From Candidatus Bipolaricaulota bacterium (lineage in GTDB: Bacteria; Bipolaricaulota; Bipolaricaulia; RBG-16-55-9; DRXL01): a stretch of 64,000 nucleotides of DNA. The notes beneath the pieces were generated by a model, which was given only the letters and a program-made list of their open reading frames with translations, searched no databases and was not told where the DNA came from. Each line of letters begins with the position of its first letter. Position 1 is the stretch's first letter. Shown one piece after another: positions 15,123 through 30,490 of this stretch. The position numbers and the translations under genes were made by a program. Location: assembly GCA_025060395.1 (NCBI GenBank), contig JANXCC010000007.1, positions 3,308 through 67,307 on the forward strand. The letters are read 5' to 3'.

Positions 15123-16052
15123 TTAGTTGCCGTACCGTGGCACGGCGTGCCAGCCCTCTAGCACCCGTAAGAGATACACCAGCTCTGGCTTGAGCTCACT
15201 TAGCACTGTATTTGTAGCACTCCCTCGACCAAAAAGCAACTCGAGCAACCCCGGCGCCGGCGGACGATACTCGATCACCTCAGCGTTGGGAACCCCAGCT
15301 AAATCTCGCGCTGTCTGTAGAGCGTCTTCGAGGCTCCCTAATTGATCGATCAGCCCAAGCTGCAGCGCTTGCGCCCCGGTGTACGGCTGCCCTGTCGCCA
15401 GCTCTCGCACTCTCTCGACGGACAGCTTGCGCCCCTCGGCAACGGCGTTGACGAACTGCTCGTAGAACTCGTCTATGTATTGTTGGACCAAGGCGCGCTC
15501 CTCATCGGTGAGGGGGCGTAATCCCAGCCCAACGTCTTTATAGGCGCCGGACTTAAAGATCTCTGCCTGGATACCTAGATTCTTTAAGAGCTCTTCGAGG
15601 GAGAAAAACACCGTGATGACGCCGATGCTCCCCGTCGTGGTCCCCGGATGGGCAATGATCTTATCAGCAAAGAGCGAGATATAGTATCCCCCAGAAGCCG
15701 CAACGTCGCCCATCGAGACGACGACCGGCTTTTTTGTCCGCTCTTTGAACCTCTTGATGCTCTCGGCAATCGCTTGCGAAGCCGCGACGGTGCCACCGGG
15801 GCTGTCTATCCGAAAGACAAGGGCTTTCACAGACGGATCGCGCTCGGCTCGCTTGAGCATCCCTTCGACTTGAGCTGGGGTAATCCCCCCGCCGCCGAAA
15901 AGTCCTGTATCGAGAGATTCGCTGATAGGGCCGCTCAAACGCGCTAGTACGACCTTGGGGCGCATACCCAGAGCGATCTGCTGTGCCGCGACCCAGATGA
16001 CATAGACAGCAACAAAAATGAGAATGATCCACAGAATGCGCCGTCCGCGCAT
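15123..16052 (-). CDS. sppA: signal peptide peptidase SppA, 36K type
   Basis: 309 aa with an N-terminal TM anchor and a ClpP-like fold carrying SMGDVAASGGYY (Ser nucleophile region). The RBS is AAGGAGG. Confidence 0.85.
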   Translation of the reverse strand: MRGRRILWIILIFVAVYVIWVAAQQIALGMRPKVVLARLSGPISESLDTGLFGGGGITPAQVEGMLKRAERDPSVKALVFRIDSPGGTVAASQAIAESIKRFKERTKKPVVVSMGDVAASGGYYISLFADKIIAHPGTTTGSIGVITVFFSLEELLKNLGIQAEIFKSGAYKDVGLGLRPLTDEERALVQQYIDEFYEQFVNAVAEGRKLSVERVRELATGQPYTGAQALQLGLIDQLGSLEDALQTARDLAGVPNAEVIEYRPPAPGLLELLFGRGSATNTVLSELKPELVYLLRVLEGWHAVPRYGN

Positions 16053-16227: not shown

Positions 16228-17007
16228 TTACTGATCACTACCTTCTTGGTCCCCTACTTCAATGCCTGGGCATACCATACAGAGGGGATTTGTTCCGTTG
16301 TTTTCTATTGTGCTCTCACGAATCTCTATGTGAGCTAAGCCGCCGGCTGTAAGGCCTTTCCACCTATTACCAGCGATAACAGATCTCTCAAGGGTGATAT
16401 ATATCGACTCTTCCCAAACCCCTGCGCTGATCCCAATGGCGTTATCTAGAACACGCGAATTCACCAGACTTAACTGAGCTTTCCCATCTCTCCCGGACAG
16501 GACCATAATACCACCAAGCTCAGCCCCTATGACTTGGGAATCGACAAGTGTCACCGTAGCTTGGAAAAGTATTAACGATGATCTTGATACTGTCGTCTTC
16601 ACTAGGTCTACAGCAGTGTTCCCTACCCCTACGATATATATCCCGGCTCCTTGGACATAAACGTCTTGAAGGGTAACACGAATTGGCCCTCCAACCACGA
16701 CACCTGCGACGCTGAACCCCTGAATCACAGCAGTGATAGGCAACTCAGCCCAAACCATTGCTCTTGATCTTACGATAGTTTTATCAGGGCCAGCTCCGCG
16801 AATCGTGATATCCTTCTGGATGAGAAAGCCATCATCCCATATCCCTTCTTCAAGGCATATGACTGCGCCTGGTGCTACCTCGTCAATGGCCTTCTGAATC
16901 GAGTCTCCTGGCTTGATGGTCACAGTACAGCTTAGCTGCGGTTGCACGGCCGCGCCCATCCAACCGGCGAAGAGTACTGCTAGAACGGCTACGTACAGTT
17001 GCTTCAT
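16228..17007 (-). CDS. secreted right-handed parallel beta-helix repeat protein (frame continues to 16065 after a shift)
   Basis: The start MKQLYVAVLAVLFAGWMGAA is at ATG 17007 after GGAGGA. It has repeated V.I..S.I..N-type beta-helix units. A further 57 codons of the same repeat type lie in another frame down to TAA 16065-16067. Confidence 0.6.
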   Translation of the reverse strand: MKQLYVAVLAVLFAGWMGAAVQPQLSCTVTIKPGDSIQKAIDEVAPGAVICLEEGIWDDGFLIQKDITIRGAGPDKTIVRSRAMVWAELPITAVIQGFSVAGVVVGGPIRVTLQDVYVQGAGIYIVGVGNTAVDLVKTTVSRSSLILFQATVTLVDSQVIGAELGGIMVLSGRDGKAQLSLVNSRVLDNAIGISAGVWEESIYITLERSVIAGNRWKGLTAGGLAHIEIRESTIENNGTNPLCMVCPGIEVGDQEGSDQ

Positions 17008-17026
17008 GAGATCCTCCTTTTCTTTC

Positions 17027-19669
17027 TTAGAACCCAATTCGAAACTCGCGCTCGAACCGCACGCTCCACCCCACTCGTGCGCCTTCTTGCGTGTTCACCC
17101 ACAAGGGATATTCTATATACACAATAGGGGATCCGTAAAATCCGAGCGTCACGCCGAGCCCTACCTCCGCGCGCACCTTTCGCTGCTCTCGGTCGAAAAC
17201 CGCTGCATTCGCAAATATAATCGCGCCCATGGAGAGCGGGATCGGCCCAATATCTATTTTGTTCAGCATGGGGATGGGAAGCCGAAGCTCATTCGTTTGG
17301 GCAAAGACCCAGTCGCTCTGCACGTCAAATGCGCGAAAGCCCGCAAAATCTTTGAGTCGAAAATCACGCTCTTCGGGAGCACGCTCCTCACGCCAGCCGA
17401 ACACCGTACGCTGCACCCAGAGCGTCTGCCACCACAGCCGAACGCGAAGCTCTTGACTCCATGAGAACTTCTGAAACGTATACTCCCCGCCCCACAAAGC
17501 CAAGCCCACTGTATAGTTTACGGCCAGCCGCGTGACTTGTGAATAACGTTCGTAGCTCATCCCTACTGAGAAGAGGCGCCCCGGATCGCGCGCGACGTCG
17601 TAGCGATTGTGATAGAGGGCACTGAGCGAGAACCGTACATCTGTTCTGTCGCGGTGCCAACGGAAGTGAATTACCCCGTCGTGAGCGAGAATGTGCCCAT
17701 CGTCTTTCTGCGTGAAAGCCCACTCTGAAGTGCAGCGATCGGCAAAACAAAACGTGCTCTTGAGACTCTGCTTGAAGACGATTCTCCCAAGTCCAAACGC
17801 CCAGCCCACGTGTATGTGCATCACTCTCAAGCCCAAGATCAGCCCGTCGTCTGGACGGCCGTGAAGCGTCCCGTGATCAAGCCACAGACTCATATCAAGT
17901 CTCTTGGGGGCAGAGTTATCCGAGCGATCCAAATCGGGCAGCACACGGTCGGGATCGAGCGTCACGGACCTGACGGGCTTATCTGTGATGAACGTGAGCG
18001 TTCCCCGCCGGTCGAGCATCTCCCAGCGCTGGCGCACCTTCGTGCCGTCGGCGAGCGTTGCTTCAGCGTCGACGGGGATGCGCATCTCGCCCTTTTGCAA
18101 GACCGGCACGCGCGTCACGTATTTGTCCTCGATCTTGCGCGAGATCAGTCGTCCAGCGCTGACGTCGAGCATCCTGGTCGTCGTGAGCCATTGCGCAAAA
18201 AATTCTCTCAGATCGCGTCCGGAGACGTCCTCAGCAGTTTTTATAAAATCTTCAGCAGTGACTTGCTTATAGCGATAGCGTCGGTAGTACTCTTGCATGA
18301 TCTGGTCGAATTTCTCGGTGCCCACTAAATTCTCCAGGGCGAAGAGCATCAGCGCGCCCTTGTGATAGGGGAGGACAGTCTTGCCCGACGGAACTTTATG
18401 TAACGGCGTCGCGAGGGGGGCTTCGCGGCCCTCGCGAGCGATGCGCGTGTAAGTGCTCAGCAGCCCTGCTCGCTCATTGCTCTCCTTGAAAATCTCTGTG
18501 AGCAAGCTGAGCCCTTGCGCTTTCAGCCAGAGAGTATCAAAGGAGTTTGCGGCTTTGCCGTATTTGTGCTCCATGTAGCTGACTTGAGCAAATGTTGCGA
18601 AGCCCTCGTCGAGCCAAGTCTCTTCTAATTGATTGTTCATAAAAATCCCGTAGAACCATTGGTGGGCGGTCTCGTGTGCTGTGACGCTGTCGAGCATCGT
18701 AAACAGCTCTGGGATGCGATAGAGCATGTAGCTCTGCTGAATGATTTGGGGGTACTCCATGGCAAAGCCGAAGCCTCTGATCTCGGCGACGGTAAAAGTC
18801 GAGTACGGATAGCGCCCGAAGCGTCTGCTGAAGTACTCAAGAGCGTCTCGAGCGTACTGGGCGGCGCGCTTGCCTGCGGCGGCGTCCTCAGGGAAATAGA
18901 GCGAGACAATCGTGACGTCCTCCCACTGAAGAGTTTCGCTCTGGTAGCGTGCGTCGGCGACCCACGCGAAGTCGTGCACGTTATCCGCGATATAGGTGAG
19001 CGTCTTGGTGCCATCAGGGTTCATAGTTTCGCGATAGAGCTGGCCCGTCGCGCCGACGACCATCTTTTGGGGAACTGTCAGCTCGACAGAATAGTGCGCG
19101 AAGTCTTCGTAGGGTTCGCTGGCGCCGAACGCATGGGCCACGTCGGGGTGCCAGCCCTTTTGATCATAGACGCTCAGCTTGGGGTACCACCACGAGATAT
19201 AATAATTGCCCTGATCGTGCCCCAGACGTTCGAGGGCGTTGGGAATCTTGAGAATAAATTTCACAGTGATCTCAACGGTCTGATCGGGGGCGATGGGCGT
19301 CTCCGGCTCGATTTTGAGAATCGTGTCGTCAATAAAATATTTGACTTCTTTGCCGTCGAGCTTCAGCTCTTGGATGAAGAGATACCCATAGTCGGGGCCA
19401 TTGGGAAAGAGCCTATCGAACGAGAGTTTGCCCATCTCGCGAGCTTGGATGCTCTCTTCAGAGAAGCGATTGGGCCACAAGTGCAGATAGAGTTCCGTGA
19501 GGGGCTTCTCGGCTTTGCTGGTGAAGAGAATTCTTTCATTGCCGTAGAGCTTGTGATCTTTCGCATCGAGTCGCGCGTGGATCTCGTAGGAGATCTCGTT
19601 GGGGAGCGCGAGAGCCGGCACGCACAGCCAACTGAGGGTTATGCAGGCGAGCAAGAGACTTCTGCGCAT
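17027..19669 (-). CDS. M1-family metallopeptidase fused to a C-terminal Omp85-like beta-barrel
   Basis: 880 aa with a signal peptide, GFAMEYPQ (GAMEN-like), HETAHQWFYG and WLDEGFA. The last ~300 aa are amphipathic beta-strand sequence ending ...VRFEREFRIGF. Confidence 0.8.
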   Translation of the reverse strand: MRRSLLLACITLSWLCVPALALPNEISYEIHARLDAKDHKLYGNERILFTSKAEKPLTELYLHLWPNRFSEESIQAREMGKLSFDRLFPNGPDYGYLFIQELKLDGKEVKYFIDDTILKIEPETPIAPDQTVEITVKFILKIPNALERLGHDQGNYYISWWYPKLSVYDQKGWHPDVAHAFGASEPYEDFAHYSVELTVPQKMVVGATGQLYRETMNPDGTKTLTYIADNVHDFAWVADARYQSETLQWEDVTIVSLYFPEDAAAGKRAAQYARDALEYFSRRFGRYPYSTFTVAEIRGFGFAMEYPQIIQQSYMLYRIPELFTMLDSVTAHETAHQWFYGIFMNNQLEETWLDEGFATFAQVSYMEHKYGKAANSFDTLWLKAQGLSLLTEIFKESNERAGLLSTYTRIAREGREAPLATPLHKVPSGKTVLPYHKGALMLFALENLVGTEKFDQIMQEYYRRYRYKQVTAEDFIKTAEDVSGRDLREFFAQWLTTTRMLDVSAGRLISRKIEDKYVTRVPVLQKGEMRIPVDAEATLADGTKVRQRWEMLDRRGTLTFITDKPVRSVTLDPDRVLPDLDRSDNSAPKRLDMSLWLDHGTLHGRPDDGLILGLRVMHIHVGWAFGLGRIVFKQSLKSTFCFADRCTSEWAFTQKDDGHILAHDGVIHFRWHRDRTDVRFSLSALYHNRYDVARDPGRLFSVGMSYERYSQVTRLAVNYTVGLALWGGEYTFQKFSWSQELRVRLWWQTLWVQRTVFGWREERAPEERDFRLKDFAGFRAFDVQSDWVFAQTNELRLPIPMLNKIDIGPIPLSMGAIIFANAAVFDREQRKVRAEVGLGVTLGFYGSPIVYIEYPLWVNTQEGARVGWSVRFEREFRIGF

Positions 19670-19842
19670 AGGGGCCTCCTGAGCAATTCTAGGATTTTTG
19701 GTTGTGTGTTTAGTCTATCACACGCTGCGTTCCTTCTCCAGCCACGCGCACCCAAATTATTAAAGTTTTAGTACAGCCAATTCACTTCCTCTTCGATCTT
19801 GATAATTTGGATCTCGTTGCCAAGCAGTCGCTCTATATCTCT

Positions 19843-20085
19843 TCAGAACAGCCAAGCTAATTCTGGATTCGTTTGCAATAATCTAATGATTTCCTCTAGG
19901 ACTTCAATCCTTAGTTTTATATTCTCGAGCCGACGTCTTTCGCGTTCAGCTGGCAATTCAATTAAAATGCTAAGAAGCTCAACAAAAGTCTTGCCCGCGC
20001 TATAAAGCCAGCGGTCATTCCAATGATCAACTCGATTTGAAGCGGGGACTGTTTGGATAGCTTTCCAATCTTGAGTTCCAATCAT
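19843..20085 (-). CDS. hypothetical protein (80 aa) in an AT-rich islet
   Basis: Strong RBS (GAGGAGGATAGAGCG-ATG). I recognise no family. Local GC is about 32% (19/60 in 19861-19920). Confidence 0.4.
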   Translation of the reverse strand: MIGTQDWKAIQTVPASNRVDHWNDRWLYSAGKTFVELLSILIELPAERERRRLENIKLRIEVLEEIIRLLQTNPELAWLF

Positions 20086-20301
20086 CGCTCTATCCTCCTC
20101 TAGCGTCTATAGAAGTTAGGAGGGTAAAGAATGGGGTTATCAGGGCTCTCATAGAAGAGAACCAAACGGCCGCAAAGCATGGTAAGGTCGAAGATGAACT
20201 CTGTGATTGATCTTGCCGAAAGTTCCGGAACCTCTTTGCACGTTAGTAGAATCCTCCTTTTACGTGCTTCCTACCCACTCCAGCCGCGTGTCAGCTTTTC
20301 C

Positions 20302-23094
20302 CTACATTCCCCCTTGTACATCAAAATAGACCGTCGGCCCCGACTGGCCCTGCCCCTGCGCTAGCCCAACTCTTAACTCTATCGGTACTCTATACCCTAG
20401 CACGATCCTCAATCGCAACTCTCCCCCATAGCTGAAATGCGCTTCGTCCGACGTCAAAGGCTCGCCTGAAAGATATACCCCCTCTGCAAAGAGCGCTCCA
20501 TCTATCCGATCAAAGAAGACAGACCAGTGCCCTATCCCGTGTCCGATGTGCAAGATCGGAAAGACAAACTCCCAACCCGTGTAGATGACTTGCGTCGCTT
20601 TTCTGAAGTCTTTGGGAAAGCCCCGCAGCGACCAGAGCTCCCCAAGCCCGCCCACACTCAATGGCTCAAGATCGTCACGCGCTAAAACAGTGAGTCGACT
20701 CAAGCGATTCGCAAAACCTAACGGTAACTGAATGCTCTCGCGCTGCGCGACCTGAAAGAGCATTTTCCATAAATTGCGCTCCAGGACAAATTCGACAAAA
20801 AGCTCTACGTCTCGCCCGATACGCAAGAGATCGCTCCCACTCTCGAGCGACTCACGATAACGCACTGTGAACGACGGCATAAGCTGTCTGCCTTGGCACA
20901 CCTGTGCCCCAAATGCTAGTATCTGCTCTCGACCTACGACCCGTGAGGATGTCAGCTCGAGCTCCGCCCGCGCAACACTCTCAAACTCGGCAGTATGCTC
21001 CAGATGCACTGAAAGTCTAGGGCTGAGCGCGTTGATGGTCTCGGCGAACCAGCCTCGCTCTTTCACTGCCAACGCCACGGAGTAGTCAAACACCAACATC
21101 GGTTGCTGGGTAGGAAGATCAACCCCAGCATAGAGTGTATAGTTGTGATGCCTAAGCGGGTCGAACCCGACAAAGAGCACGGCAGGCTGCAGAGGATTGG
21201 GCACGGGCATCCACAGGCGTGGCGCTAAGAACTCTTCAGCACGATAGGGCTTTTCTGACAGAGACCCTGCACGCCAGCCGGGCCATTCTATAACGCTCGC
21301 GCGCGCAAACTGCACTGGCTTCCAACTTTGGGGATCGTAGTCCATCACGTGTAGCTCATAGCCCTTGGTGCTGTAGCTGATAAACGCAATCTTTGTCCCA
21401 TCGGGCGAGACTGCTGGCGCGAACGCGCCCGTCAGCAGATTCGTCACTTTAAAAAATTGTCCGTCGGAGACGCGATACGCATAGAGATTGTAGATGCCGT
21501 CGCGCTCGGAGCTGAAGAGAATATATTGACCATCGGGGGACCAGTCTGGGTCAAAGTCTCCGGCTTTGTCTTGGGTGAGAGCTGTCAGCGACGAGCCGTC
21601 TGCACTCAGCAGATAGAGATCTTGGTAGCCGCCCATCTTCCAGAGAGTCAGGGCAATCTGGGTGCCATCGGGGGAGATCGCGAATGAGTCTATCAGGGTC
21701 CCCTCAGGGAACTCATAGAACGGCACGGTTCTTTCGCTGTTTAGCTCGTAGATCGCAAGTATAGGAGCTTGGCCGTTGGGACGCTGCTGCGCAAAGAGAA
21801 TCTTTGTGCCGTTGGGGAAGAAGACGGGATTGTACGCACGAGCGCGCTCTGTTAATCGACGCTCTTCTTTCTTCTCTAAATCCCATAGATAGAGATCGGC
21901 GTAGAGATAGTGATTCTCGAAGATCTCGTGTCTAGTGTAGAGCACGGACTTGCCGTCGGGAGAGACGTGCGGGGCTGGAGCGAAGAACGGTGGTCTAAAG
22001 AAATCGAGTTCGAAGGGCACAACGAAGAGAAACTGTTCGTCCTTGCCGTCGGGAGTGATGCGTCGGACGGACGCTTCGCGAACTACGTCTTTGTGATAGT
22101 AATAGATAAATTTCCCGTCGGGCGCCCATGCCGGATCGTTGTGCCAATAGCTTAAGCGACTGATCTTGCGTGACTGCGTAACGCCCTCACTCTTGATTTT
22201 TTCGATCTGGGGCTCAAACTGGACCTTGAGCCAAGCGCGCCAAGCCCTTTCTAGCTCCTGAGCCGAGACACCAAGAGCTCTCTTGAAAACGTTCCCAAAA
22301 TCGTTGATCGTTCCCAAAGTCAAGAGAGGCCAGAGTGAATCAGCGTTGATCTCGTCGATCCTAGCAAATGCTTCGTCGCCATACGTTTCAGCGATGAAGC
22401 GGCCAAACCAAGCGCCCCAGTCGTGGGCGAGCATATATCCTGAGGGCCAATGGGGTGGATTGTAGCCGTAGCCGACGCCCATCTGAGCTAAGGGCGTAAA
22501 GCGATTCTCCAGCACTTCGGCTCGGAGGTACATGGCATCTCGTGCGGAGTTGGAGCGCGACGCGCCAGCTCGCTTCAATTCAAAATAGATGGGGATGCCT
22601 TCAATGATCGTACCAGGCTTGCTCGCGTTGGGGAGCGTGAGCAGCGGGCCGAGCCAGGGGCGCAGCTTCTCCGAAAGCCCCGAAACTTTCGTAATATCGA
22701 AGATATGCCCAATCTCGTGATATAAGACGTCTTCGAGCCAAGAGGGGTTTTGCGAGTTGAGCCATTCATTAAAGACACGAGCGTTGGAGACACTGGCGAT
22801 GACGTCTCCAAAGGGATTGGCCGCGCCCACGGCAAAGTCCGACGGATCAGCCAAGATAATATTAATCTTGAGGGGGACAGCGTATCTCAGCTCCTTCGCC
22901 CAGAACTGATACGCTTCTTCGCTAATGAGCGCAGCTTCTTGGGCAATCGCTTCTAGGCCCTCATGATAGATCACGTTGAAGTGCTCTGTTGTGAGCACAT
23001 ACCAATCGAGCGTGGGATCTAGGTCAAGAAACTGCGCCGACGTCGAGAGCCCGAACGTAAGCATAAGAATGAGACTACACACTATGAGACGCAT
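20302..23094 (-). CDS. secreted HExxH peptidase-like domain, PD40/TolB-type beta-propeller and Omp85-like C-terminal barrel
   Basis: The start MRLIVCSLILMLTFGLSTSAQ is at ATG 23094 after AAGGAGG. It has YHEIGH and the PD40 repeats SPDGKSVLY, SPDGTQIAL, SPDGQYILFSSERDG and SPDGTKIAFIS. The C-terminal ~300 aa carry LRGF and GGELRLRIVLGYRVPIELRVGLAQG. Confidence 0.7.
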   Translation of the reverse strand: MRLIVCSLILMLTFGLSTSAQFLDLDPTLDWYVLTTEHFNVIYHEGLEAIAQEAALISEEAYQFWAKELRYAVPLKINIILADPSDFAVGAANPFGDVIASVSNARVFNEWLNSQNPSWLEDVLYHEIGHIFDITKVSGLSEKLRPWLGPLLTLPNASKPGTIIEGIPIYFELKRAGASRSNSARDAMYLRAEVLENRFTPLAQMGVGYGYNPPHWPSGYMLAHDWGAWFGRFIAETYGDEAFARIDEINADSLWPLLTLGTINDFGNVFKRALGVSAQELERAWRAWLKVQFEPQIEKIKSEGVTQSRKISRLSYWHNDPAWAPDGKFIYYYHKDVVREASVRRITPDGKDEQFLFVVPFELDFFRPPFFAPAPHVSPDGKSVLYTRHEIFENHYLYADLYLWDLEKKEERRLTERARAYNPVFFPNGTKILFAQQRPNGQAPILAIYELNSERTVPFYEFPEGTLIDSFAISPDGTQIALTLWKMGGYQDLYLLSADGSSLTALTQDKAGDFDPDWSPDGQYILFSSERDGIYNLYAYRVSDGQFFKVTNLLTGAFAPAVSPDGTKIAFISYSTKGYELHVMDYDPQSWKPVQFARASVIEWPGWRAGSLSEKPYRAEEFLAPRLWMPVPNPLQPAVLFVGFDPLRHHNYTLYAGVDLPTQQPMLVFDYSVALAVKERGWFAETINALSPRLSVHLEHTAEFESVARAELELTSSRVVGREQILAFGAQVCQGRQLMPSFTVRYRESLESGSDLLRIGRDVELFVEFVLERNLWKMLFQVAQRESIQLPLGFANRLSRLTVLARDDLEPLSVGGLGELWSLRGFPKDFRKATQVIYTGWEFVFPILHIGHGIGHWSVFFDRIDGALFAEGVYLSGEPLTSDEAHFSYGGELRLRIVLGYRVPIELRVGLAQGQGQSGPTVYFDVQGGM

Positions 23095-23167: not shown

Positions 23168-23392
23168 CTATTCTCCGAAATCCTCGACTTTGAAGTTCTC
23201 GGCTTCCTCGAGGACTTTTTTGACGCGCAGTTGCGCTTCACTTAATCGCTTCTGAATGGAGTCGGCAAGCTTGACCCCTTCTTCAAAGAGCTCCAGAGAT
23301 TCCTCGAGCGAGATCTGCTCGTTTTCTAATTGGCGAACGATCTCTTCTAGACGCGCGAGTGCCGGCTCAATCTTGAGAGGGTGCTGTTCCAT
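23168..23392 (-). CDS. xseB: exodeoxyribonuclease VII small subunit
   Basis: MEQHPLKIEPALARLEEIVRQLENEQISLEESLELFEEGVKL is the typical XseB helical hairpin. It overlaps the end of xseA. Confidence 0.85.
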   Translation of the reverse strand: MEQHPLKIEPALARLEEIVRQLENEQISLEESLELFEEGVKLADSIQKRLSEAQLRVKKVLEEAENFKVEDFGE

Positions 23393-24693: not shown

Positions 24694-25992
24694 TTAGAAC
24701 TTTACTCTGATTGAAGGGCTGACGTAGAGCAAATACTCTCGGCGCATTTGCGCTTCGAGGCTCGCCATCCAAGCCCATGTCCCAGGGCCCGCAAATCCCC
24801 AGCTCAGCTCGACTCTTTGATTGTAAAAGCCGTTGATCAAACCGCCCATGAATGCCGTCTGCGACCGAAATCTGAATGGATCAAACTCTGCAACGACCTC
24901 CAGCGTATGCATCAACCCTACAGGATCTTGAGCGACTATCTCGTCCCTGAAAGAGATCGCTCCCCACTGGACGAAGAAGCTCAAGCGCCTGGCAGGAAAG
25001 TGAAAGAATCCATTAGGATCGATAAATTCGATCTCGAAGACCCCTTCCCCTAGCTGCACCGTCCACCCAAAGCTCACAAAGGACGGCGTTGCTAGATCGT
25101 TGAGCACGATCTTCTGATAGACGACTACGCCCATCAGGGAGACCCGAAGCGAGAGAATGAGCTGCGAGAGCTCAATGGTCGTGAAGTCGAACGCAAGTTC
25201 TGCTCCTAGCGTTACTCCGGCGATCGTCACGTTTCTAATGATGAGCTTCTCTTCTTGGAAGCCGAGGCCGGGCACGACGCGGCCTTCAAAGGAGCGTTCA
25301 AAGGCTTTGCACTCGCCAAAGCACTCCCAACCTTGCCGAGCCCCGATATATGTCTGCATCATGACCTCAGCACCCCCAGGAGTGCGGCCCCCGGCCTCGA
25401 AGATAAGCCCGCTCTGAAAATCTGGGGTAGAGGCCGTCCCGAAATTTGCGACCAACATGGTGACCGTGAACCAGACGCCCCAGAGGTTGATCGACATTTG
25501 AGAGATAAGCTTTCTGAACTGTAAGGGCTCGTCGAGGGTGGGCGCCAGTAACTTCGAGAGATCTAGAGGCGAAGCCAGCTCGTCTATGAACATCCGTAGA
25601 GGGACACCGACTAACCCCGGATCGGGCTGAGCAAACCGAATCGTCCAGAAAGGGTCGTCATCGATCTCGAGAATATTAGGGGCGAAGATTACGACGTTTC
25701 TGAACGTGATTGCCATGCCCGCGTACATCTCGAGGGCCTGAAATTCTGCGCCCTTGAAGCTGAAGACGCTTGTGCTTGTGAGCGCAAGCCCGCTTACGTA
25801 TAGCCCTAGCTGAAGGATTGTCTCAGCGTCGACGTTGATCTGATCTATCTTAGTTTGACCAAAGGTGAGCGGCTCAAAGAAGATAGCCAGCTGAACCTCG
25901 CCGGAGATGGGCGCGGCCAAGCCCGTCGCTGGCTCCCAGCCCCAAGCCCCTAGCTGCGCAACAGCAATAGCGATAAGGAGCGCCCTCTTCAT
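24694..25992 (-). CDS. predicted outer-membrane beta-barrel protein (no family recognised)
   Basis: 432 aa with a signal peptide (MKRALLIAIAVAQLGAWG). It is beta-strand rich and ends ...YVSPSIRVKF (terminal Phe). Its start overlaps the upstream stop (ATGA). Confidence 0.5.
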   Translation of the reverse strand: MKRALLIAIAVAQLGAWGWEPATGLAAPISGEVQLAIFFEPLTFGQTKIDQINVDAETILQLGLYVSGLALTSTSVFSFKGAEFQALEMYAGMAITFRNVVIFAPNILEIDDDPFWTIRFAQPDPGLVGVPLRMFIDELASPLDLSKLLAPTLDEPLQFRKLISQMSINLWGVWFTVTMLVANFGTASTPDFQSGLIFEAGGRTPGGAEVMMQTYIGARQGWECFGECKAFERSFEGRVVPGLGFQEEKLIIRNVTIAGVTLGAELAFDFTTIELSQLILSLRVSLMGVVVYQKIVLNDLATPSFVSFGWTVQLGEGVFEIEFIDPNGFFHFPARRLSFFVQWGAISFRDEIVAQDPVGLMHTLEVVAEFDPFRFRSQTAFMGGLINGFYNQRVELSWGFAGPGTWAWMASLEAQMRREYLLYVSPSIRVKF

Positions 25993-26498
25993 GGTGCGAC
26001 GATCACCACCTGACCGGCTATGGGCGGACCGAGGGGAATAGGCTGCCCAACTCTATCGGTGAAGAGATCGATAGCTGTTATGGTGAGCGCGGTTTGTGCG
26101 CCCACAGAGCCTATGGCTTGGACACTCATCTCAATGATAGGGATTTGGAGTACCCCTAGCCCTGGAGCGACGATGGGCCGGATGCTTCCCCCAGAGAAGC
26201 TCGCCACAAACTGCACCCACCCCATCAGGTTATTGATCGTGCTCCCAAAGACAGTAAACCCGTTCACCCCAGTTAGCCCTGCCACTTGAATGACTGCAGG
26301 ATTGAACGTCAAGAATCCTCCAGGACCGACTTGGATGGTCTTGACATCTGGGGGATTCAGAACACTGATGCGAACAATTCCCGTTCCCCCGGAGGGCAGC
26401 TCGAGCGTACCTACTATAACCTGAGTACGATAAGATCCCTCGCAGCCCGTTATGAGCCCTAGCGCTATGATCAGGCCCACCAGCACTCTAGGCTTCAT
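25989..26498 (-). CDS. cohesin-like lipoprotein
   Basis: 169 aa with a lipobox (LGLITGC). Its single beta-sandwich pattern resembles cohesin modules (IQVGPGGFLTFNPAVIQVAGLTGVNGF...GWVQFVASFSG...LTITAIDLFTD). Its start overlaps the stop of the giant gene (ATGA). Confidence 0.5.
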   Translation of the reverse strand: MKPRVLVGLIIALGLITGCEGSYRTQVIVGTLELPSGGTGIVRISVLNPPDVKTIQVGPGGFLTFNPAVIQVAGLTGVNGFTVFGSTINNLMGWVQFVASFSGGSIRPIVAPGLGVLQIPIIEMSVQAIGSVGAQTALTITAIDLFTDRVGQPIPLGPPIAGQVVIVAP

Positions 26499-29400
26499 CG
26501 GAGGATCACCAGCTTCTGGATACGGCTATAGATGAGGGAACCGTCAGCCCCTCGCACCGTAACAACGTAGAGATAGACACCGTTTGCGAGCGTATCTGGG
26601 AACCAAGTCAGCTCTGAGCCTTGATGCCATCCACTTGTGAAGACGATCCTTCCAGCGAGGTTGAAGACCTGGACGTTCAAAGCTGCAATAGCTGTTCCGT
26701 GAGCGCGGAAGCGAATCGCTTGTCCGAGGGCTCGATGTTCAGCGCGCTCTAAGGTCACAGGAGCGTGTGACTGCAGAGGAGCCATCTCAGAAGCTCGGGC
26801 ATCCAACGGTGGGCAATAGCTCAGATAACCGCGGGCAATCTCGCTAATCCGAGTAACATCGCGAGCATCGAGCACACCAAATGGGGGGGCGACGTCGGCA
26901 GCAAGGCGTTGCGCTTCGGTGAGTTCGATAGCTCCTAGAATAGCTCGTGCGACGAGCTGCGCATCGGCTTCTTCGACAAGACCGCTGCTATCGACATCAC
27001 CGCAGAGCAAGAACGAACTTCCCAAAGCGATGACCGTCGCGTCGTTAGGCGTAGGAGTGCGGGGGTCATCGCTGTATTGGCCAGAGATGTTCGAACCGGA
27101 GATCTGGGCTTGGTTGGAGATCGTTAGGGTGTGAGGCGGGAGAGGATTATCAATCTGGACGCGGAAGCTCACGCGAGCTTGGCCTCCGAGAGCCCCCAAT
27201 GCCCCAAAGGCGACCTGAACGCCAGAGGCCCCCCCATGAGCCACACCTAGGCTGGCCTTAGGCGCTTCGTTGACAAGATATGTCTTGGGATCAGGCGTAT
27301 CGGCGAGCGTGAGATTTGAAGCGTCTCGAGTCCCAGCGTTGATGATTGTCAAGACATATTCGAGTATATCTCCGGGGGTGATGGTACCGCTTCGATCGGT
27401 GTCATAGACTAAGAAAGCGTCCTTGGTGAAGTATAGGAGCGGTGCAGCAGCCAGAGCGGTCTTCGTTGCATCCTTCTGCGCTGGGGTATCAGGATCGTCA
27501 CTAGTGATGCTGCCAACCCCAGGGACGTTGACAAGCACATGGTGGGAGATGCTAGAGACGCTTGACGGCAGAGGATCTCTGAGGACGACGTCAAACGAAA
27601 CCGCAGCCATCTCTCCTGGTGGGATTCTGTCTAACAGCACTCCCAGCGAACTGTCTCCTGAGGAGTTACCCGTCTGCACAGTCCCAACAGAAGCGCGCAC
27701 GCTCCCTACCACCAGGGTAGTATTGAGATCAGGGATAGCACTCAAAAAAGCGTTGATAGCTTCAGCGTTTCCGATATTCATGAGCAAGACATGATAGCCG
27801 AGGGTATCGCCAGGGCTAGGAAGGCCATCAAGATCGGCGTCGACTTTGAGAAAGTCTCTCATGAAGACCAACACATAGGGAAGCTGAGCGATGGCCGTGA
27901 GTGTTGGGTCATCGAGGGCTGGTGTTGCTGGATCATCGCTTACGAAGCTGGGGATGTTGTCACCACTCACGAGCACGCGATTGGCTACCGCGGTGATGCC
28001 GCTAGGCAGAGGGGAGTTTACCCCAACGCGGAACGTGATCGTCGCACTCTCGCCGTTGCCTGCTAGCGTGCCTAGGTTCACCTGTACGAATCTATCGTTT
28101 TCTGAGTTCCCCACTAGCACGGCACCTTGAGTGGTCGTCACACTCCCAATCACTAGGGTGACGTTCGGGTCCAAGCTATCGGATACGAGGACAGAGCCAG
28201 CATTCTCGCGACCCACGTTCGTCACCGTGATCGTATATTTGAGGATATCGCCGGGGCTAGGGATGCCGTTTTCATCTAGATCAGAAAAGATCGAGAACGT
28301 CTTGTAGACTCTCAGCAGCGGGGCCACGCTGAGGATGATCTCCGTAGGATCGTAGGGGATAGGCGTCGCCGGATCATCTGTAGGTTCGTCGGGGCGCTCG
28401 TTGCTAGAGACCAGTCCATGAGCGCGAATGCTGAGGACTCCTGGAGGAAGCGAGGGCTTCAAGCGTACTCGGAACTGAACCGTTGCCGACGCCTTTGGGG
28501 CGAGAGTTGTCCATTCGACGCGCACTTGTGACCCCATGGATGACGATATCGTGCCTTCGCTCGCGTTGATGCTATTAGCAACGAGATCAGTATAGGGATC
28601 TAGCATACCCCGGAAGACAACCCCTGTAGCGGCGACCGACCCTCTGTTAGCGATCGTTGCTGAGTACTCTATAGTGTCACCGGGGCTCGCGCCTAAGGGG
28701 GGGATGTCTTCGACGAGAGAGGCCGTAAGAACAGCTTGGAGCTGCGGGCCCTGAGGAGTGGCTCCAACGGTCGTTGTGAGAGACGCGGCATTATTGGCAG
28801 TGTTGCTCTCAGGGGAGTTTGTTATCGCTTGGGCGACTGTGGTGAGCTTAGTACCTGTGGGTACAGAACTGAGCACAGTGACTTGGAGGCTCAGCGAGCC
28901 GCCTTGGCCTGCCGCCAGCGATCCAATCGAGAATGTCACTGTCTGATCAGCGTTGCTTGTCGGTATCTTGCTGGCGCTCACTACTCGAGTCCCTTCAGGG
29001 AGGGTAAGAGTAATCTGCAGGTCCTCAGCGACTGACGGTCCAGCATTATGATAGTTTATAATAAGATTCAAAGAGCCTCCTGGGAGCACGGTCGTCGGTC
29101 CAGAGAGCGATAGCTCTACATCCGCCACACTGTTAACACACGTTGTATCCGAAGCGACAATGGAGTTTGAACTTACAGTCCCTTGAGCGGTATTGCAGAT
29201 GGTATCAGCTGAAGTAGCTGTAGCTTGGAAGCTCACGGTGCCAGCGAGATTCTGCCCTGGGAGAATGGCCTCAAGGATGACCCAGCGGAGGGCATTCACG
29301 CTTGCTGGAGAGGACGGCTCCGTTGCGACAAACGTTGCACCTCCATCGGTAGACCAGAGCGTCAAGCAAGGAGCGCTGCACGTTGCACTTCCTTGAACAT

Positions 29401-30490
29401 AAGTGATCTCTGCCGGGAGGATATTCGTGATCACGATGTTATTTCCCGAAGCGGGATCGCCTATAGGAGCGCCGCCGGTGTTGCCGTAAGCAAAAGAGTA
29501 TGTAATGACTGTCCCGGGAACGGCAGCCGATGGGGTGGCAGAAGCATCGAGGACGAGGTTACCGAGGGTCTCGCGCACTTGAATAGTGATCTTCAGTGCG
29601 CCCAGGTCAGCGTTAAACTTATGTCCACTGCCTGAGGCTGCTTGTTGATAGGGCTGGAGCGTCGTCACACAGTTTCGTAGCCCGATGAACGTATACTTCA
29701 CATAGTCAGATGGGTTGCGCACATAATTTGGCGGCGGATTATGAGAACCAATCCCTGAGAAATAGATCTGGTCTTGATAGGGTGTTGCTCTGATGCTCTG
29801 GAGCGCGACTTCGGTGCGGACGAGACGCAAGCACGTGGGATCGAAGCTAGGGTTGCTGACGGGCTGGAGCCAGACGTCCTCGACGGCCTCAGGACCGGCT
29901 CCGATGGCGCCCAAATCAAAACCCCTGATCGTGATCGTGACGAGCTGGCCAATGCCGATCTGGCCGGAACTGGGCTCTAGGGTCACCGAGCCATCGGCGG
30001 CCAAGATCTTGCTCGAGCTCAGTGCAGATGCGCTGTGGGTCTGCAAAGTGGCGCTCTTCGTCGCGCCGCAACTGCCTTCCGAGATCGCCCACACCACATA
30101 CGGATATGAGATATTGATCGTATTGGGGTAGACGACATGCCAGTAGAGAGTTCGGGTTACTCCAGCGGGAAGGTTCCCCAAGAAGCGAGTCGCTTCGCTG
30201 GGGGAGCCAAGCATGTGTAAGCTCTGCCCGCTAACCTCGTCAAAGACTCCTGGGATGGTGCCATTCCCAAGGAAGACTGTGACGTTCTCGAGCACTGTTG
30301 AGCCGGTGTTCTGCACCCTTGCTGAGAGCGTAGCGACCCTTGGCCCCTCCGCAGCGACGAGCGCGAACGGACTGGACGTGATCGTGATCTTCAGCGAACA
30401 GCTGGCGTAGACGACCCGGTTTGAGATCGCACCAGACACGAAGAGAGAGAACACACCGGCTAGGACCAGCAAGCAGATCTGTCGGCGCAT
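26495..30490 (-). CDS. giant secreted repeat protein: DUF11-type repeats, dockerin and an Ig-like sorting-type C-terminal domain
   Basis: 1331 aa with a signal peptide and at least five DUF11-like repeats (PGDTIEYSATIANRGS, PGDILKYTITVTNVGR, PGDTLGYHVLLMNIGN, PGDILEYVLTIINAGT). Its dockerin-like pair is GDVDSSGLVEEADAQLVARAILG / ADVAPPFGVLDARDVTRISEIARG. The C-terminus reads VQVFNLAGRIVF...LANGVYLYVVTV. Confidence 0.75.
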   Translation of the reverse strand: MRRQICLLVLAGVFSLFVSGAISNRVVYASCSLKITITSSPFALVAAEGPRVATLSARVQNTGSTVLENVTVFLGNGTIPGVFDEVSGQSLHMLGSPSEATRFLGNLPAGVTRTLYWHVVYPNTINISYPYVVWAISEGSCGATKSATLQTHSASALSSSKILAADGSVTLEPSSGQIGIGQLVTITIRGFDLGAIGAGPEAVEDVWLQPVSNPSFDPTCLRLVRTEVALQSIRATPYQDQIYFSGIGSHNPPPNYVRNPSDYVKYTFIGLRNCVTTLQPYQQAASGSGHKFNADLGALKITIQVRETLGNLVLDASATPSAAVPGTVITYSFAYGNTGGAPIGDPASGNNIVITNILPAEITYVQGSATCSAPCLTLWSTDGGATFVATEPSSPASVNALRWVILEAILPGQNLAGTVSFQATATSADTICNTAQGTVSSNSIVASDTTCVNSVADVELSLSGPTTVLPGGSLNLIINYHNAGPSVAEDLQITLTLPEGTRVVSASKIPTSNADQTVTFSIGSLAAGQGGSLSLQVTVLSSVPTGTKLTTVAQAITNSPESNTANNAASLTTTVGATPQGPQLQAVLTASLVEDIPPLGASPGDTIEYSATIANRGSVAATGVVFRGMLDPYTDLVANSINASEGTISSSMGSQVRVEWTTLAPKASATVQFRVRLKPSLPPGVLSIRAHGLVSSNERPDEPTDDPATPIPYDPTEIILSVAPLLRVYKTFSIFSDLDENGIPSPGDILKYTITVTNVGRENAGSVLVSDSLDPNVTLVIGSVTTTQGAVLVGNSENDRFVQVNLGTLAGNGESATITFRVGVNSPLPSGITAVANRVLVSGDNIPSFVSDDPATPALDDPTLTAIAQLPYVLVFMRDFLKVDADLDGLPSPGDTLGYHVLLMNIGNAEAINAFLSAIPDLNTTLVVGSVRASVGTVQTGNSSGDSSLGVLLDRIPPGEMAAVSFDVVLRDPLPSSVSSISHHVLVNVPGVGSITSDDPDTPAQKDATKTALAAAPLLYFTKDAFLVYDTDRSGTITPGDILEYVLTIINAGTRDASNLTLADTPDPKTYLVNEAPKASLGVAHGGASGVQVAFGALGALGGQARVSFRVQIDNPLPPHTLTISNQAQISGSNISGQYSDDPRTPTPNDATVIALGSSFLLCGDVDSSGLVEEADAQLVARAILGAIELTEAQRLAADVAPPFGVLDARDVTRISEIARGYLSYCPPLDARASEMAPLQSHAPVTLERAEHRALGQAIRFRAHGTAIAALNVQVFNLAGRIVFTSGWHQGSELTWFPDTLANGVYLYVVTVRGADGSLIYSRIQKLVILR

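Follow-up and report, generated by a model that had tools for sequence, protein, structure and literature searches.

Omp85 proteins are known as the machinery by which other proteins are inserted or translocated, and POTRA domains are what defines them in practice. A survey that split the superfamily into ten subfamilies also included groups without POTRA domains, namely the 'WD40-like', 'Metallo' (PF00149) and 'noNterm' proteins (Heinz & Lithgow, 2014; PMC4104836). WD40-like architectures combine PF01103 with PF07676; the best TolB hits of their members are 2ivz and 2w8b (supplementary tables of PMC4104836), the 'best aminopeptidase hit' is 1z5h, 4kxd or 4fgm (Table S3 of the same paper), and UniProt H1XQ58, D0MEQ5 and D5CSQ4 are given as examples. 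The group has been summed up as having 'WD40 and peptidase domains' in a paper of 2024 (PMC11358297). Here we describe two neighbouring genes, P1 and P2, in a 64,000-nucleotide stretch of a Candidatus Bipolaricaulota genome (contig JANXCC010000007.1, positions 3,308 to 67,307; hereafter the window), each of which encodes a peptidase module joined to a C-terminal barrel of the Omp85 type.

P2 has the same three-part build as the WD40-like proteins, with an aminopeptidase-like gluzincin domain, a TolB-type propeller with four PD40 repeats and a POTRA-less barrel, and it is a divergent new member of the subfamily catalogued in 2014. P1 has no propeller. The Bipolaricaulota clade differs from the described WD40-like proteins in being too divergent to pass PF01103, in reading FAEGV in place of FxDxG and in carrying His in the presumed catalytic Tyr column; the 2014 survey did not cover this phylum. 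Proteins with the P2 architecture are also found in Geomonas paludis (P0188) and Geomesophilobacter sediminis (P0192), where their NCBI name is 'BamA/TamA family outer membrane protein'. We know of no enzyme-bearing WD40-like or M1-Omp85 protein that has been characterised at the bench. The combination found in P1, a true M1 aminopeptidase on a POTRA-less Omp85 barrel, seems to be undescribed: PF01433 has 0 occurrences in the 2014 tables (PMC4104836), and nothing relevant was found in open-access full texts on Omp85 together with M1 or aminopeptidase. A preliminary description of the window, made from its letters alone, had suggested that both architectures would be new, which still stands for P1 and falls for P2, since the WD40-like proteins were already a common annotated family. 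It had also taken a passenger on an Omp85 barrel to be established only for patatin-type Vd autotransporters, whereas fusions other than POTRA were classified in 2014 (PMC4104836).

The two genes are as follows.

17027-19669, minus strand: P1, M1 aminopeptidase with a POTRA-less Omp85 barrel (880 aa; stop codon 17027-17029)
20302-23094, minus strand: P2, M1-like gluzincin domain, TolB-type PD40 propeller and POTRA-less Omp85 barrel, a 'WD40-like Omp85' (930 aa; stop codon 20302-20304)

Open reading frame (ORF) calls and translation placed both where the preliminary description had them. An AGGAGG ribosome-binding site (RBS) lies 6 nt ahead of the P1 ATG, and full-length P1 orthologues occur in Bipolaricaulota metagenome-assembled genomes (MAGs) at 38-90% identity. 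The mechanical ORF of P2 reaches 23130 (942 aa). Its start is nevertheless likely to be the ATG at 23094, as first proposed, because AAGGAGG stands just ahead of that codon and the nearest orthologues (P0121-P0123) are 930-933 aa long. P2 residue numbers below follow the 942-aa ORF and are to be reduced by 12 for the 930-aa protein. The window is otherwise ordinary chromosome, encoding IF-2, PriA, DnaX, UvrC, a V-type ATPase and xseA/xseB, and the nearest genomes are MAGs, 80-84% identical, that are labelled Bipolaricaulota, 'Fraserbacteria' or 'uncultured Thermotogae'.

Two POTRA-less barrels of the Omp85 superfamily

17030-17893, minus strand: P1 Omp85-type 16-strand barrel, residues 593-880 (AlphaFold2 pLDDT 93.1, pTM 0.81; Foldseek; family profile)
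20305-21216, minus strand: P2 Omp85-type 16-strand barrel, residues 639-942 (AlphaFold2 pLDDT 91.9, pTM 0.81; Foldseek; family profile)

The AlphaFold2 models of the barrels were built on alignments of 94 (P1) and 79 (P2) sequences. DSSP assigned 16 main strands to each predicted structure (P1 593-872, P2 639-940). Strands 11 and 12, between which loop 6 of Omp85 proteins is found, are joined by a loop of 24 residues in P1 (763-786) and of 27 in P2 (820-846). On the basis of these predicted barrels we rejected a soluble β-sandwich at the C-terminus. When they were compared with the PDB by Foldseek, all 50 matches listed for each model were BamA, TamA, FhaC, CdiB or mitochondrial SAM-complex chains. 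The best for P1 were TamA (4c00, 1.1e-6) and BamA (1.2e-6), with TMq up to 0.50; for P2 they were TamA (4c00, 8.2e-7) and the BamA of D. radiodurans (8xnb, TMq 0.62). The TM-scores are modest throughout (0.43-0.62), with identities of 9-13%.

At the level of single sequences the relationship is hidden. Neither P1 nor P2, as full-length proteins or as isolated C-termini, matched PF01103 even at E<=10; a phmmer search of PDB sequences with the P1 barrel found nothing, and direct BLASTP between P1 and P2 gave nothing significant. The Pfam checks proposed in the preliminary description succeeded for PF01433 in P1 and for the PD40 repeats in P2, and failed for PF01103 in both. Distant relatives do pass PF01103 over their C-terminal ~300 residues (P0043 with 47.9 bits and P0173 with 43.7 bits, against a cut-off of 24), and we linked the window's barrels to such regions by single-step searches with family-only profiles, iterative searching having been set aside as drift-prone. 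A profile of Bipolaricaulota P1 barrels only reached the PF01103-positive regions of P0042 (8.7e-12) and P0082 (3.6e-9), and the P2 family-only profile reached PF01103-positive P0170 (1.8e-29) and P0188 (5.6e-25; Z=1e6 in all four cases). Run against 1.84 billion proteins, the P1 family-only profile gave just 40 matches at E<=1e-3, among them P0256 (3.3e-7), P0261, P0262, P0267 and P0274, in which the matched stretch lies within or overlaps regions that pass PF01103. (Three of these weak matches, P0262, P0267 and P0274, have DUF5686 ahead of the Omp85 barrel, which is another POTRA-less or differently equipped architecture.) The P1 and P2 barrels also aligned with each other in hhalign (88%, E 3e-6, 205 columns), with their motifs in register. 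Because three lines agree, namely the 16-strand models, the Foldseek matches and the family-profile links, we place both C-termini in the Omp85 superfamily despite the lack of a direct PF01103 match, and the proposal that each protein is a peptidase module with an Omp85-type C-terminal barrel is confirmed.

The hallmark motifs are kept to different degrees. P2 carries LRGF at residues 835-838, between strands 11 and 12 of the model, and this is indeed the Omp85 loop-6 motif that the preliminary description had taken it for. P1 has FRAF at the equivalent place (778-781), retaining the Arg and the aromatic residue and losing the Gly. At the strand-13 position of the FxDxG lid-lock partner P1 reads FANAA and P2 FAEGV, neither of which is the canonical motif. 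Other Bipolaricaulota orthologues of P1 retain FRGF, and some have FGDVG, FGDLG or FADVG; in the PF01103-positive M1 fusions both motifs are canonical (LRGY and FxDxG). LRG(F/Y) is retained in P2 and in most of its relatives, and the relatives beyond the window's clade also have FxDxG. P1 ends in EFRIGF, and the sequence noted in the C-terminal region of P2 is GGELRLRIVLGY.

As a separate observation, the motif SPxxDHGxLxGRxxDGLILGL is strongly conserved at the start of the barrel (residues 593-612, ~17834-17893) in the Bipolaricaulota P1 family. It spans strand 1, a short helix and strand 2, with H599, G600 and D608 at least 90% conserved and G613 invariant. To our knowledge it has no counterpart in BamA or TamA.

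No POTRA domain was found in P1 or P2, either as a Pfam match or in the AlphaFold2 models, in line with what the preliminary description had anticipated. The barrel is preceded in P1 by an all-β sandwich and a linker of ~20 residues, and in P2 by the propeller, with one short helix between it and strand 1. P1 and P2 share with BamA and TamA (PDB 4c00, 4n74, 8xnb, 4k3b) the 16 strands, a long loop 6 with R-x-aromatic and the strand-13 partner position, and differ from them in having no POTRA, shorter barrels (~290-300 aa) and short external loops; an enzyme replaces the substrate-handling domains, and in P1 the lid-lock motifs are degenerate. Comparable in layout are the type Vd proteins (PlpD of Pseudomonas aeruginosa, FapA), in which an N-terminal hydrolase and a C-terminal 16-strand barrel of the Omp85 type likewise form one polypeptide. 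PlpD, however, has a patatin lipase as its passenger, a POTRA before the barrel and demonstrated secretion, whereas P1 and P2 have zinc peptidases and no POTRA. We therefore rejected an assignment to type Vd, with which the barrel type alone is common, and also one to type Va autotransporters: there is no PF03797 match, the strands number 16 and not 12, a pre-barrel pore helix is absent, and the top Foldseek matches are Omp85 proteins. The Metallo and noNterm groups (PMC4104836), including the noNterm paralogues of Leptospira (PMC11358297), resemble P1 and P2, as far as their descriptions go, in having POTRA-less barrels that are bare or carry a non-POTRA enzyme; the fused domain is a different one or is absent.

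Peptidase modules of P1 and P2

19607-19669, minus strand: P1 signal peptide, residues 1-21 (Sec type, A-L-A|L cleavage, VPALA|LPNE; predicted by eye from the sequence)
18188-18850, minus strand: P1 M1 catalytic domain, residues 274-494 (Pfam PF01433 Peptidase_M1, 1.4e-20)
17957-18163, minus strand: P1 7-strand β-sandwich, residues 503-571 (AlphaFold2: strands only, pLDDT ~90 or above)
17894-17956, minus strand: P1 linker, residues 572-592, opening with the DPDRVLPDLDRSDN motif (572-585; AlphaFold2 and alignment)
23035-23094, minus strand: P2 signal peptide, MRLIVCSLILMLTFGLSTSA|Q (Sec type, STSA|QFLD; predicted by eye from the sequence)
22162-23034, minus strand: P2 N-terminal HExxH domain, ~300 residues (alignment and hhalign)
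21301-22143, minus strand: P2 PD40/TolB-type β-propeller, ~residues 330-610 (Pfam PD40 x4, 6.5e-25)

Residues 22-571 of P1 form a complete M1 aminopeptidase module, with a PF01433 score of 74.3 bits against a cut-off of 27.7. The motifs that the preliminary description had picked out (GFAMEY, HETAH, WLDEGF and the C-terminal EFRIGF) are all present. The zinc site is intact, HETAH (332-336) being followed after 18 residues by E355 in WLDEGF (352-357), as in HExxH-X18-E; the GxMEx motif is GFAMEY (301-306), in which the Glu is retained and the Asn of GxMEN is replaced by Tyr; and the catalytic Tyr is Tyr435 in PYHKGA (434-439). These features, with the PF01433 score, place P1 in MEROPS family M1. 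Searching the PDB with phmmer gave glutamyl, alanine and N aminopeptidases and tricorn factor F3 (best 1.6e-11). P1 resembles M1 aminopeptidases such as PepN, glutamyl aminopeptidase (4kx7), tricorn-interacting factor F3 and the cold-active enzyme 3cia in its complete M1 module, and departs from them in having a small β-sandwich instead of an ERAP1-like helical C-domain and GFAMEY where they have GAMEN. In the model the β-sandwich is the C-terminal domain of the peptidase module and not a POTRA; barrel-less homologues of 585-630 aa span P1 to about residue 585. A lipoprotein was also considered and rejected, as a lipobox is absent and the 'SWLC' of P1 does not fit one.

The N-terminal domain of P2 is more distant. 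YHEIGH stands at residues 137-142 (HEIGH 138-142) and E-G at 177-178, and in an alignment of 12 diverse relatives the H, E and H are invariant, as is the E-G ~35 residues downstream. By itself the domain had no Pfam match at E<=10, its profile gave only weak M1 matches in the PDB (E 0.18-0.7), and Peptidase_MA_2 was matched in 3 of the 12 relatives. Aligned by hhalign with the M1 core of the P1 family, it gave a probability of 96.6% (E 6.4e-10, 243 columns), with HExxH, the third zinc-ligand Glu and the Tyr column in register; the presumed catalytic Tyr column is His in the window's P2 clade. P2 has neither the N-domain of M1 enzymes nor the GxMEN exopeptidase motif. Because the zinc ligands align in register, we regard this domain as an M1-like gluzincin with the thermolysin-type catalytic fold, and because the M1 N-domain and GxMEN are absent we place P2 outside family M1, the profile-level likeness being limited to the catalytic core. 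With the NCBIfam TolB propeller model P2 gave a match (7.6e-41) that falls short of the curated cut-off of the model.

Common ancestry of the P1 and P2 families is suggested by their sequences, because both the catalytic-domain type and the barrels are related. If a single ancestral gluzincin-Omp85 fusion gave rise to both the M1-Omp85 and the WD40-like proteins, these would form one widespread and so far unrecognised POTRA-less class in which the barrel does more than anchor, exporting its own peptidase to the surface or serving as a peptide pore for the tethered enzyme; we regard this broader proposal as rather improbable.

Orientation and role of the barrels

We favour a reading in which the barrel serves as an anchor, fixing peptidases that face the periplasm to the toga-like outer membrane, and give it a probability of roughly one half. 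The organism's BAM would insert the barrel into this lipopolysaccharide (LPS)-free membrane. Strand 1 would have its N-terminus on the side of the periplasm, as in every solved Omp85, so that the enzyme module would remain in the periplasm (or toga space), where the barrel keeps it attached to the inner face of the outer membrane. There P1 would remove N-terminal residues from oligopeptides, and P2 would act on peptides or unfolded chains that its propeller admits or holds. ABC importers for peptides and amino acids would take up the products, serving an organism that ferments peptides. Bipolaricaulota have no LPS genes and a toga-like outer membrane (PMC6092417), and their first isolate is J31 (bioRxiv 10.1101/2025.11.21.689855). 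For Ran1, the one member whose metabolism has been reconstructed, the reconstruction shows fermentation of peptides and amino acids taken up from outside, with a single extracellular protease encoded.

We prefer this reading because of the strand connections, the short linker, the homologues with transmembrane (TM) anchors, the fast divergence of the barrel, the type of propeller and the peptide fermentation of the organism. Of the seven even-to-odd strand connections in the P1 model, six have 2-3 residues and one, between strands 12 and 13, has 11; odd-to-even connections have 3-24 residues. A barrel whose N-terminus is periplasmic usually looks like this, with turns that are short on the periplasmic side and loops that are longer on the outside. 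The ~20 residues that join the β-sandwich to strand 1 contain neither a POTRA nor any helical or extended segment capable of passing through the pore. The C-terminal part that contains the barrel diverges faster than the enzyme (P0014 is 55% identical over the last 380 residues and 72% overall), and this faster divergence, together with the decay of the lid-lock motifs in the window's P1 clade (FRAF, FANAA), would fit a passive anchor. TolB-type propellers are periplasmic modules. The N-terminal domain of the WD40-like proteins has likewise been treated by analogy with periplasmic TolB and BamB (PMC4104836).

The barrel-less homologues bear on the same point. Among the 120 best P1 homologue clusters 26 entries have no barrel, four of which are truncated fragments, and 15 of the 26 end in a hydrophobic helix followed by at least two Lys/Arg:

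TM-tailed barrel-less M1 homologues, 583-612 aa: P0052, P0053, P0058, P0059, P0062, P0064, P0066, P0072, P0073, P0075, P0084-P0086, P0100, P0111

The barrel-less homologues share with P1 the signal peptide, the mature N-terminus (..YGLPNEV) and the terminal β-sandwich, and differ from it in the C-terminal anchor, which is an Omp85 barrel in P1 and a TM helix or nothing in the barrel-less group. Those whose ends were read have a P1-like signal peptide and the 'LPNEV' mature end; they also share with P1 a DPxR...RxNN motif, which stands just before the TM helix in most of the TM-tailed homologues. After the DPDRVLPDLDRSDN motif, P1 homologues thus have either a TM helix or a barrel. Because the TM-tailed proteins keep the signal peptide, mature end and DPxR...RxNN motif of P1, helix and barrel appear from their sequences to be interchangeable C-terminal anchors at the same junction of one exported enzyme. 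The succession of motif, helix and Arg/Lys tail also recalls sorting signals of the sortase or exosortase type.

The preliminary description had proposed surface display or secretion of the proteases. On such an account the barrel, alone or with BAM, would move the peptidase across the outer membrane in the manner of type Vd, so that external peptides are digested at the surface. The order of enzyme and barrel is that of type V systems, PlpD offers a precedent for a barrel of the Omp85 type, the Bipolaricaulota of the Ran1 type encode a single extracellular protease and need external peptides, and the short external loops of P1 might, going by the model, leave the pore open. The structure of the proteins speaks for the opposite: only ~20 residues separate the folded sandwich from strand 1, with no POTRA or pore-spanning linker; the passengers are large multidomain zinc enzymes (~570 and ~600 aa); and in both models loop 6 lies where it plugs BamA and TamA. 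A TolB-type propeller is moreover typically periplasmic, and the barrel-less homologues are held by their C-terminal helix to the cytoplasmic membrane, facing the same compartment. With the predicted topology and these TM-anchored relatives both pointing to anchoring, we consider self-export unlikely. If it did occur, it would be a new type V-like route without POTRA.

The uneven retention of the lid-lock motifs bears on two further readings. One is a role in envelope quality control or biogenesis, in which the barrel would engage unfolded outer-membrane proteins at its lateral seam by β-augmentation, or dock to BAM, and the fused protease, accompanied in P2 by a propeller reminiscent of BamB or TolB, would degrade stalled or misfolded substrates, so that a single polypeptide would do the work of a BepA-like protease. 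The P2 family keeps LRG(F/Y), and its distant members FxDxG; P2 has no GxMEN and so could be an endopeptidase; and one M1-Omp85 relative adjoins lpxC/fabZ-lpxA. Heinz and Lithgow likened the WD40-like Omp85 proteins to a BamA-BamB fusion, and periplasmic proteolytic quality control has been proposed for enzyme-bearing Omp85s (PMC4104836). P1, however, is a complete M1 enzyme, and enzymes of this family work on short peptides with a free N-terminus and are not known to serve as quality-control proteases; its lid-lock motifs have decayed in the window's clade, the neighbouring genes are xseAB, an S49 peptidase and Yip1-type membrane proteins rather than envelope-biogenesis genes, and the TM-anchored barrel-less homologues favour a generic exported peptidase. 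Overall this role seems rather improbable. It is more plausible for P2 than for P1, because P2 keeps LRGF and has no exopeptidase motif.

The other is a peptidase coupled to a channel, in which an open barrel pore would admit external oligopeptides and the tethered enzyme would trim them on arrival, making a single unit of uptake and processing. This would suit P1, whose external loops other than loop 6 are very short in the AlphaFold2 model, whose clade has lost the motifs that hold loop 6 in the lumen, and whose short linker tethers the enzyme beside strand 1. Solved Omp85 barrels are closed to the outside (PMC4104836), however, and P2 retains the lid-lock arginine motif, and we think such a channel very unlikely.

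A periplasm-facing anchor also has several observations to contend with. We infer the membrane side of the enzymes from models, and in that of P2 the lengths of the strand connections fit both topologies. The LRG(F/Y) kept in P2 and most of its relatives, and the FxDxG outside the clade, hint at a working Omp85 function, because a mere anchor would not need these motifs. Several external loops of P1 are only 3-5 residues long in the AlphaFold2 model, and its barrel may not be capped like BamA. PlpD shows that a barrel of the Omp85 type is able to export an N-terminal enzyme (PMC4104836). The last five residues of P1, in the presumed β-signal, have a pLDDT of <50. With regard to the family assignment, P1 and P2 themselves fail PF01103, and the Bipolaricaulota-only P1-barrel profile, searched against PDB sequences, found no Omp85 and only a chance match to DEPDC5 (E 0.28).

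Gene neighbourhood, distribution and significance

Close relatives share the gene order xseA-xseB-P2-gap-P1-(β-helix ORF)-S49 peptidase. P2 and P1 are separated by 632 bp in the window and by 0.6, 3.3, 4.2 or 8.3 kb depending on the genome; in the relative L001 the interval contains two ORFs, one of 1011 aa and one of 1247 aa (L001 1740-4775 and 4822-8565). A 39%-identical orthologue of P1 on a 606-kb contig has no P2 within 10 kb. The preliminary description had pointed out that the two proteins occur within 6 kb. With variable spacing among close relatives and pairing lost in the one distant relative examined, we rejected a conserved two-gene system. The adjacency is clade-specific, because the gap varies and the distant orthologue has no P2 nearby. 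When a broad barrel profile was run against all six-frame ORFs of at least 150 aa in the window, it matched P1 and P2 alone.

Several neighbouring genes were noted along the way. The P2-P1 gap is a variable insertion point among the relatives, and in the window it contains an 80-aa ORF (MIGTQDWKAIQ...ELAWLF; 19843-20085, minus strand) with a strong RBS, GAGGAGG. Overlapping the P1 stop by 11 nt is a 269-aa ORF (16228-17037, minus strand) with a hydrophobic N-terminus and the likely start MKQLYVAVLAVLFAG. It has a weak right-handed β-helix match (E 6.7e-4, below the Pfam cut-off) and is variable, being present in L001, a remnant in L003 and absent from L002, L004, L005 and L008. An S49 gene (SppA-type signal-peptide peptidase; 15123-16052, minus strand) lies directly downstream of P1 and is kept beside it in all relatives of at least 68% identity whose contig is long enough (L001-L005, L007, L008); from this arrangement it could be co-transcribed with P1. 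On the other side, an XseB-like small ORF (exonuclease VII small subunit; LEEIVRQLENEQISLEESLELFEEGVKLADSIQKRL; ~23170-23380, minus strand) stands between xseA and P2, which starts ~75 nt downstream of it. Upstream of xseA, positions 24694-30490 (minus strand) encode a 1331-aa protein with four DUF11 matches, CARDB, Ig-like and weak dockerin matches, followed by ORFs of 169 and 432 aa that have no Pfam match. This block is at least partly conserved in L002, L003 and L008, and may be a cell-surface or S-layer-related cluster. A scan of the window for promoters and terminators found sites no more frequent than in shuffled sequence.

The M1-Omp85 fusion is not rare in sequence data: the barrel is present in 94 of the 120 best homologue clusters, and the carriers include MAGs labelled KSB1, Zixibacteria, Calditrichaeota and TA06 as well as one Saprospiraceae genome. 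The P1 barrel of the Bipolaricaulota is a divergent subtype with few members, 14 representatives having reached E<=1e-10 among 1.84 billion proteins. One PF01103-positive M1-Omp85 gene from a MAG, P0043 (L015 8001-10862), stands alone directly after lpxC/fabZ and lpxA and near the peptide-transporter gene cstA; judging by these genes, the fusion also exists in a genome that encodes enzymes of lipid A synthesis (LpxC, LpxA).

There is a lesson here for annotation, as in both families most members score too low for the PF01103 threshold. Among the barrel-bearing homologues examined, a precomputed PF01103 hit exists for only 9 of 94 in the P1 family and 8 of 78 in the P2 family. In databases they are labelled no further than 'M1 family metallopeptidase', 'TolB family protein' or 'hypothetical', and the outer-membrane location is thereby missed. 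This matters for reconstructing how peptide-fermenting uncultured bacteria get their substrates.

To a specialist the architecture will not be very surprising; it is the pairing in an LPS-less phylum, with the swap of TM helix and barrel, that makes a clean system. A complete, apparently active peptidase is joined directly to an Omp85 barrel, in two forms side by side, in a deep-branching, LPS-free, toga-bearing phylum, and the interchange of TM helix and β-barrel at the same enzyme junction would amount to anchor swapping between envelope types. P1 and P2 allow one to ask what a POTRA-less Omp85 barrel does, whether as anchor, pore or exporter, a question raised by Heinz and Lithgow (2014). 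Should the broader proposal of one ancestral fusion class be true, that class would be one of the principal means by which LPS-free bacteria with a toga, the Bipolaricaulota for example, position hydrolases at their outer membrane.

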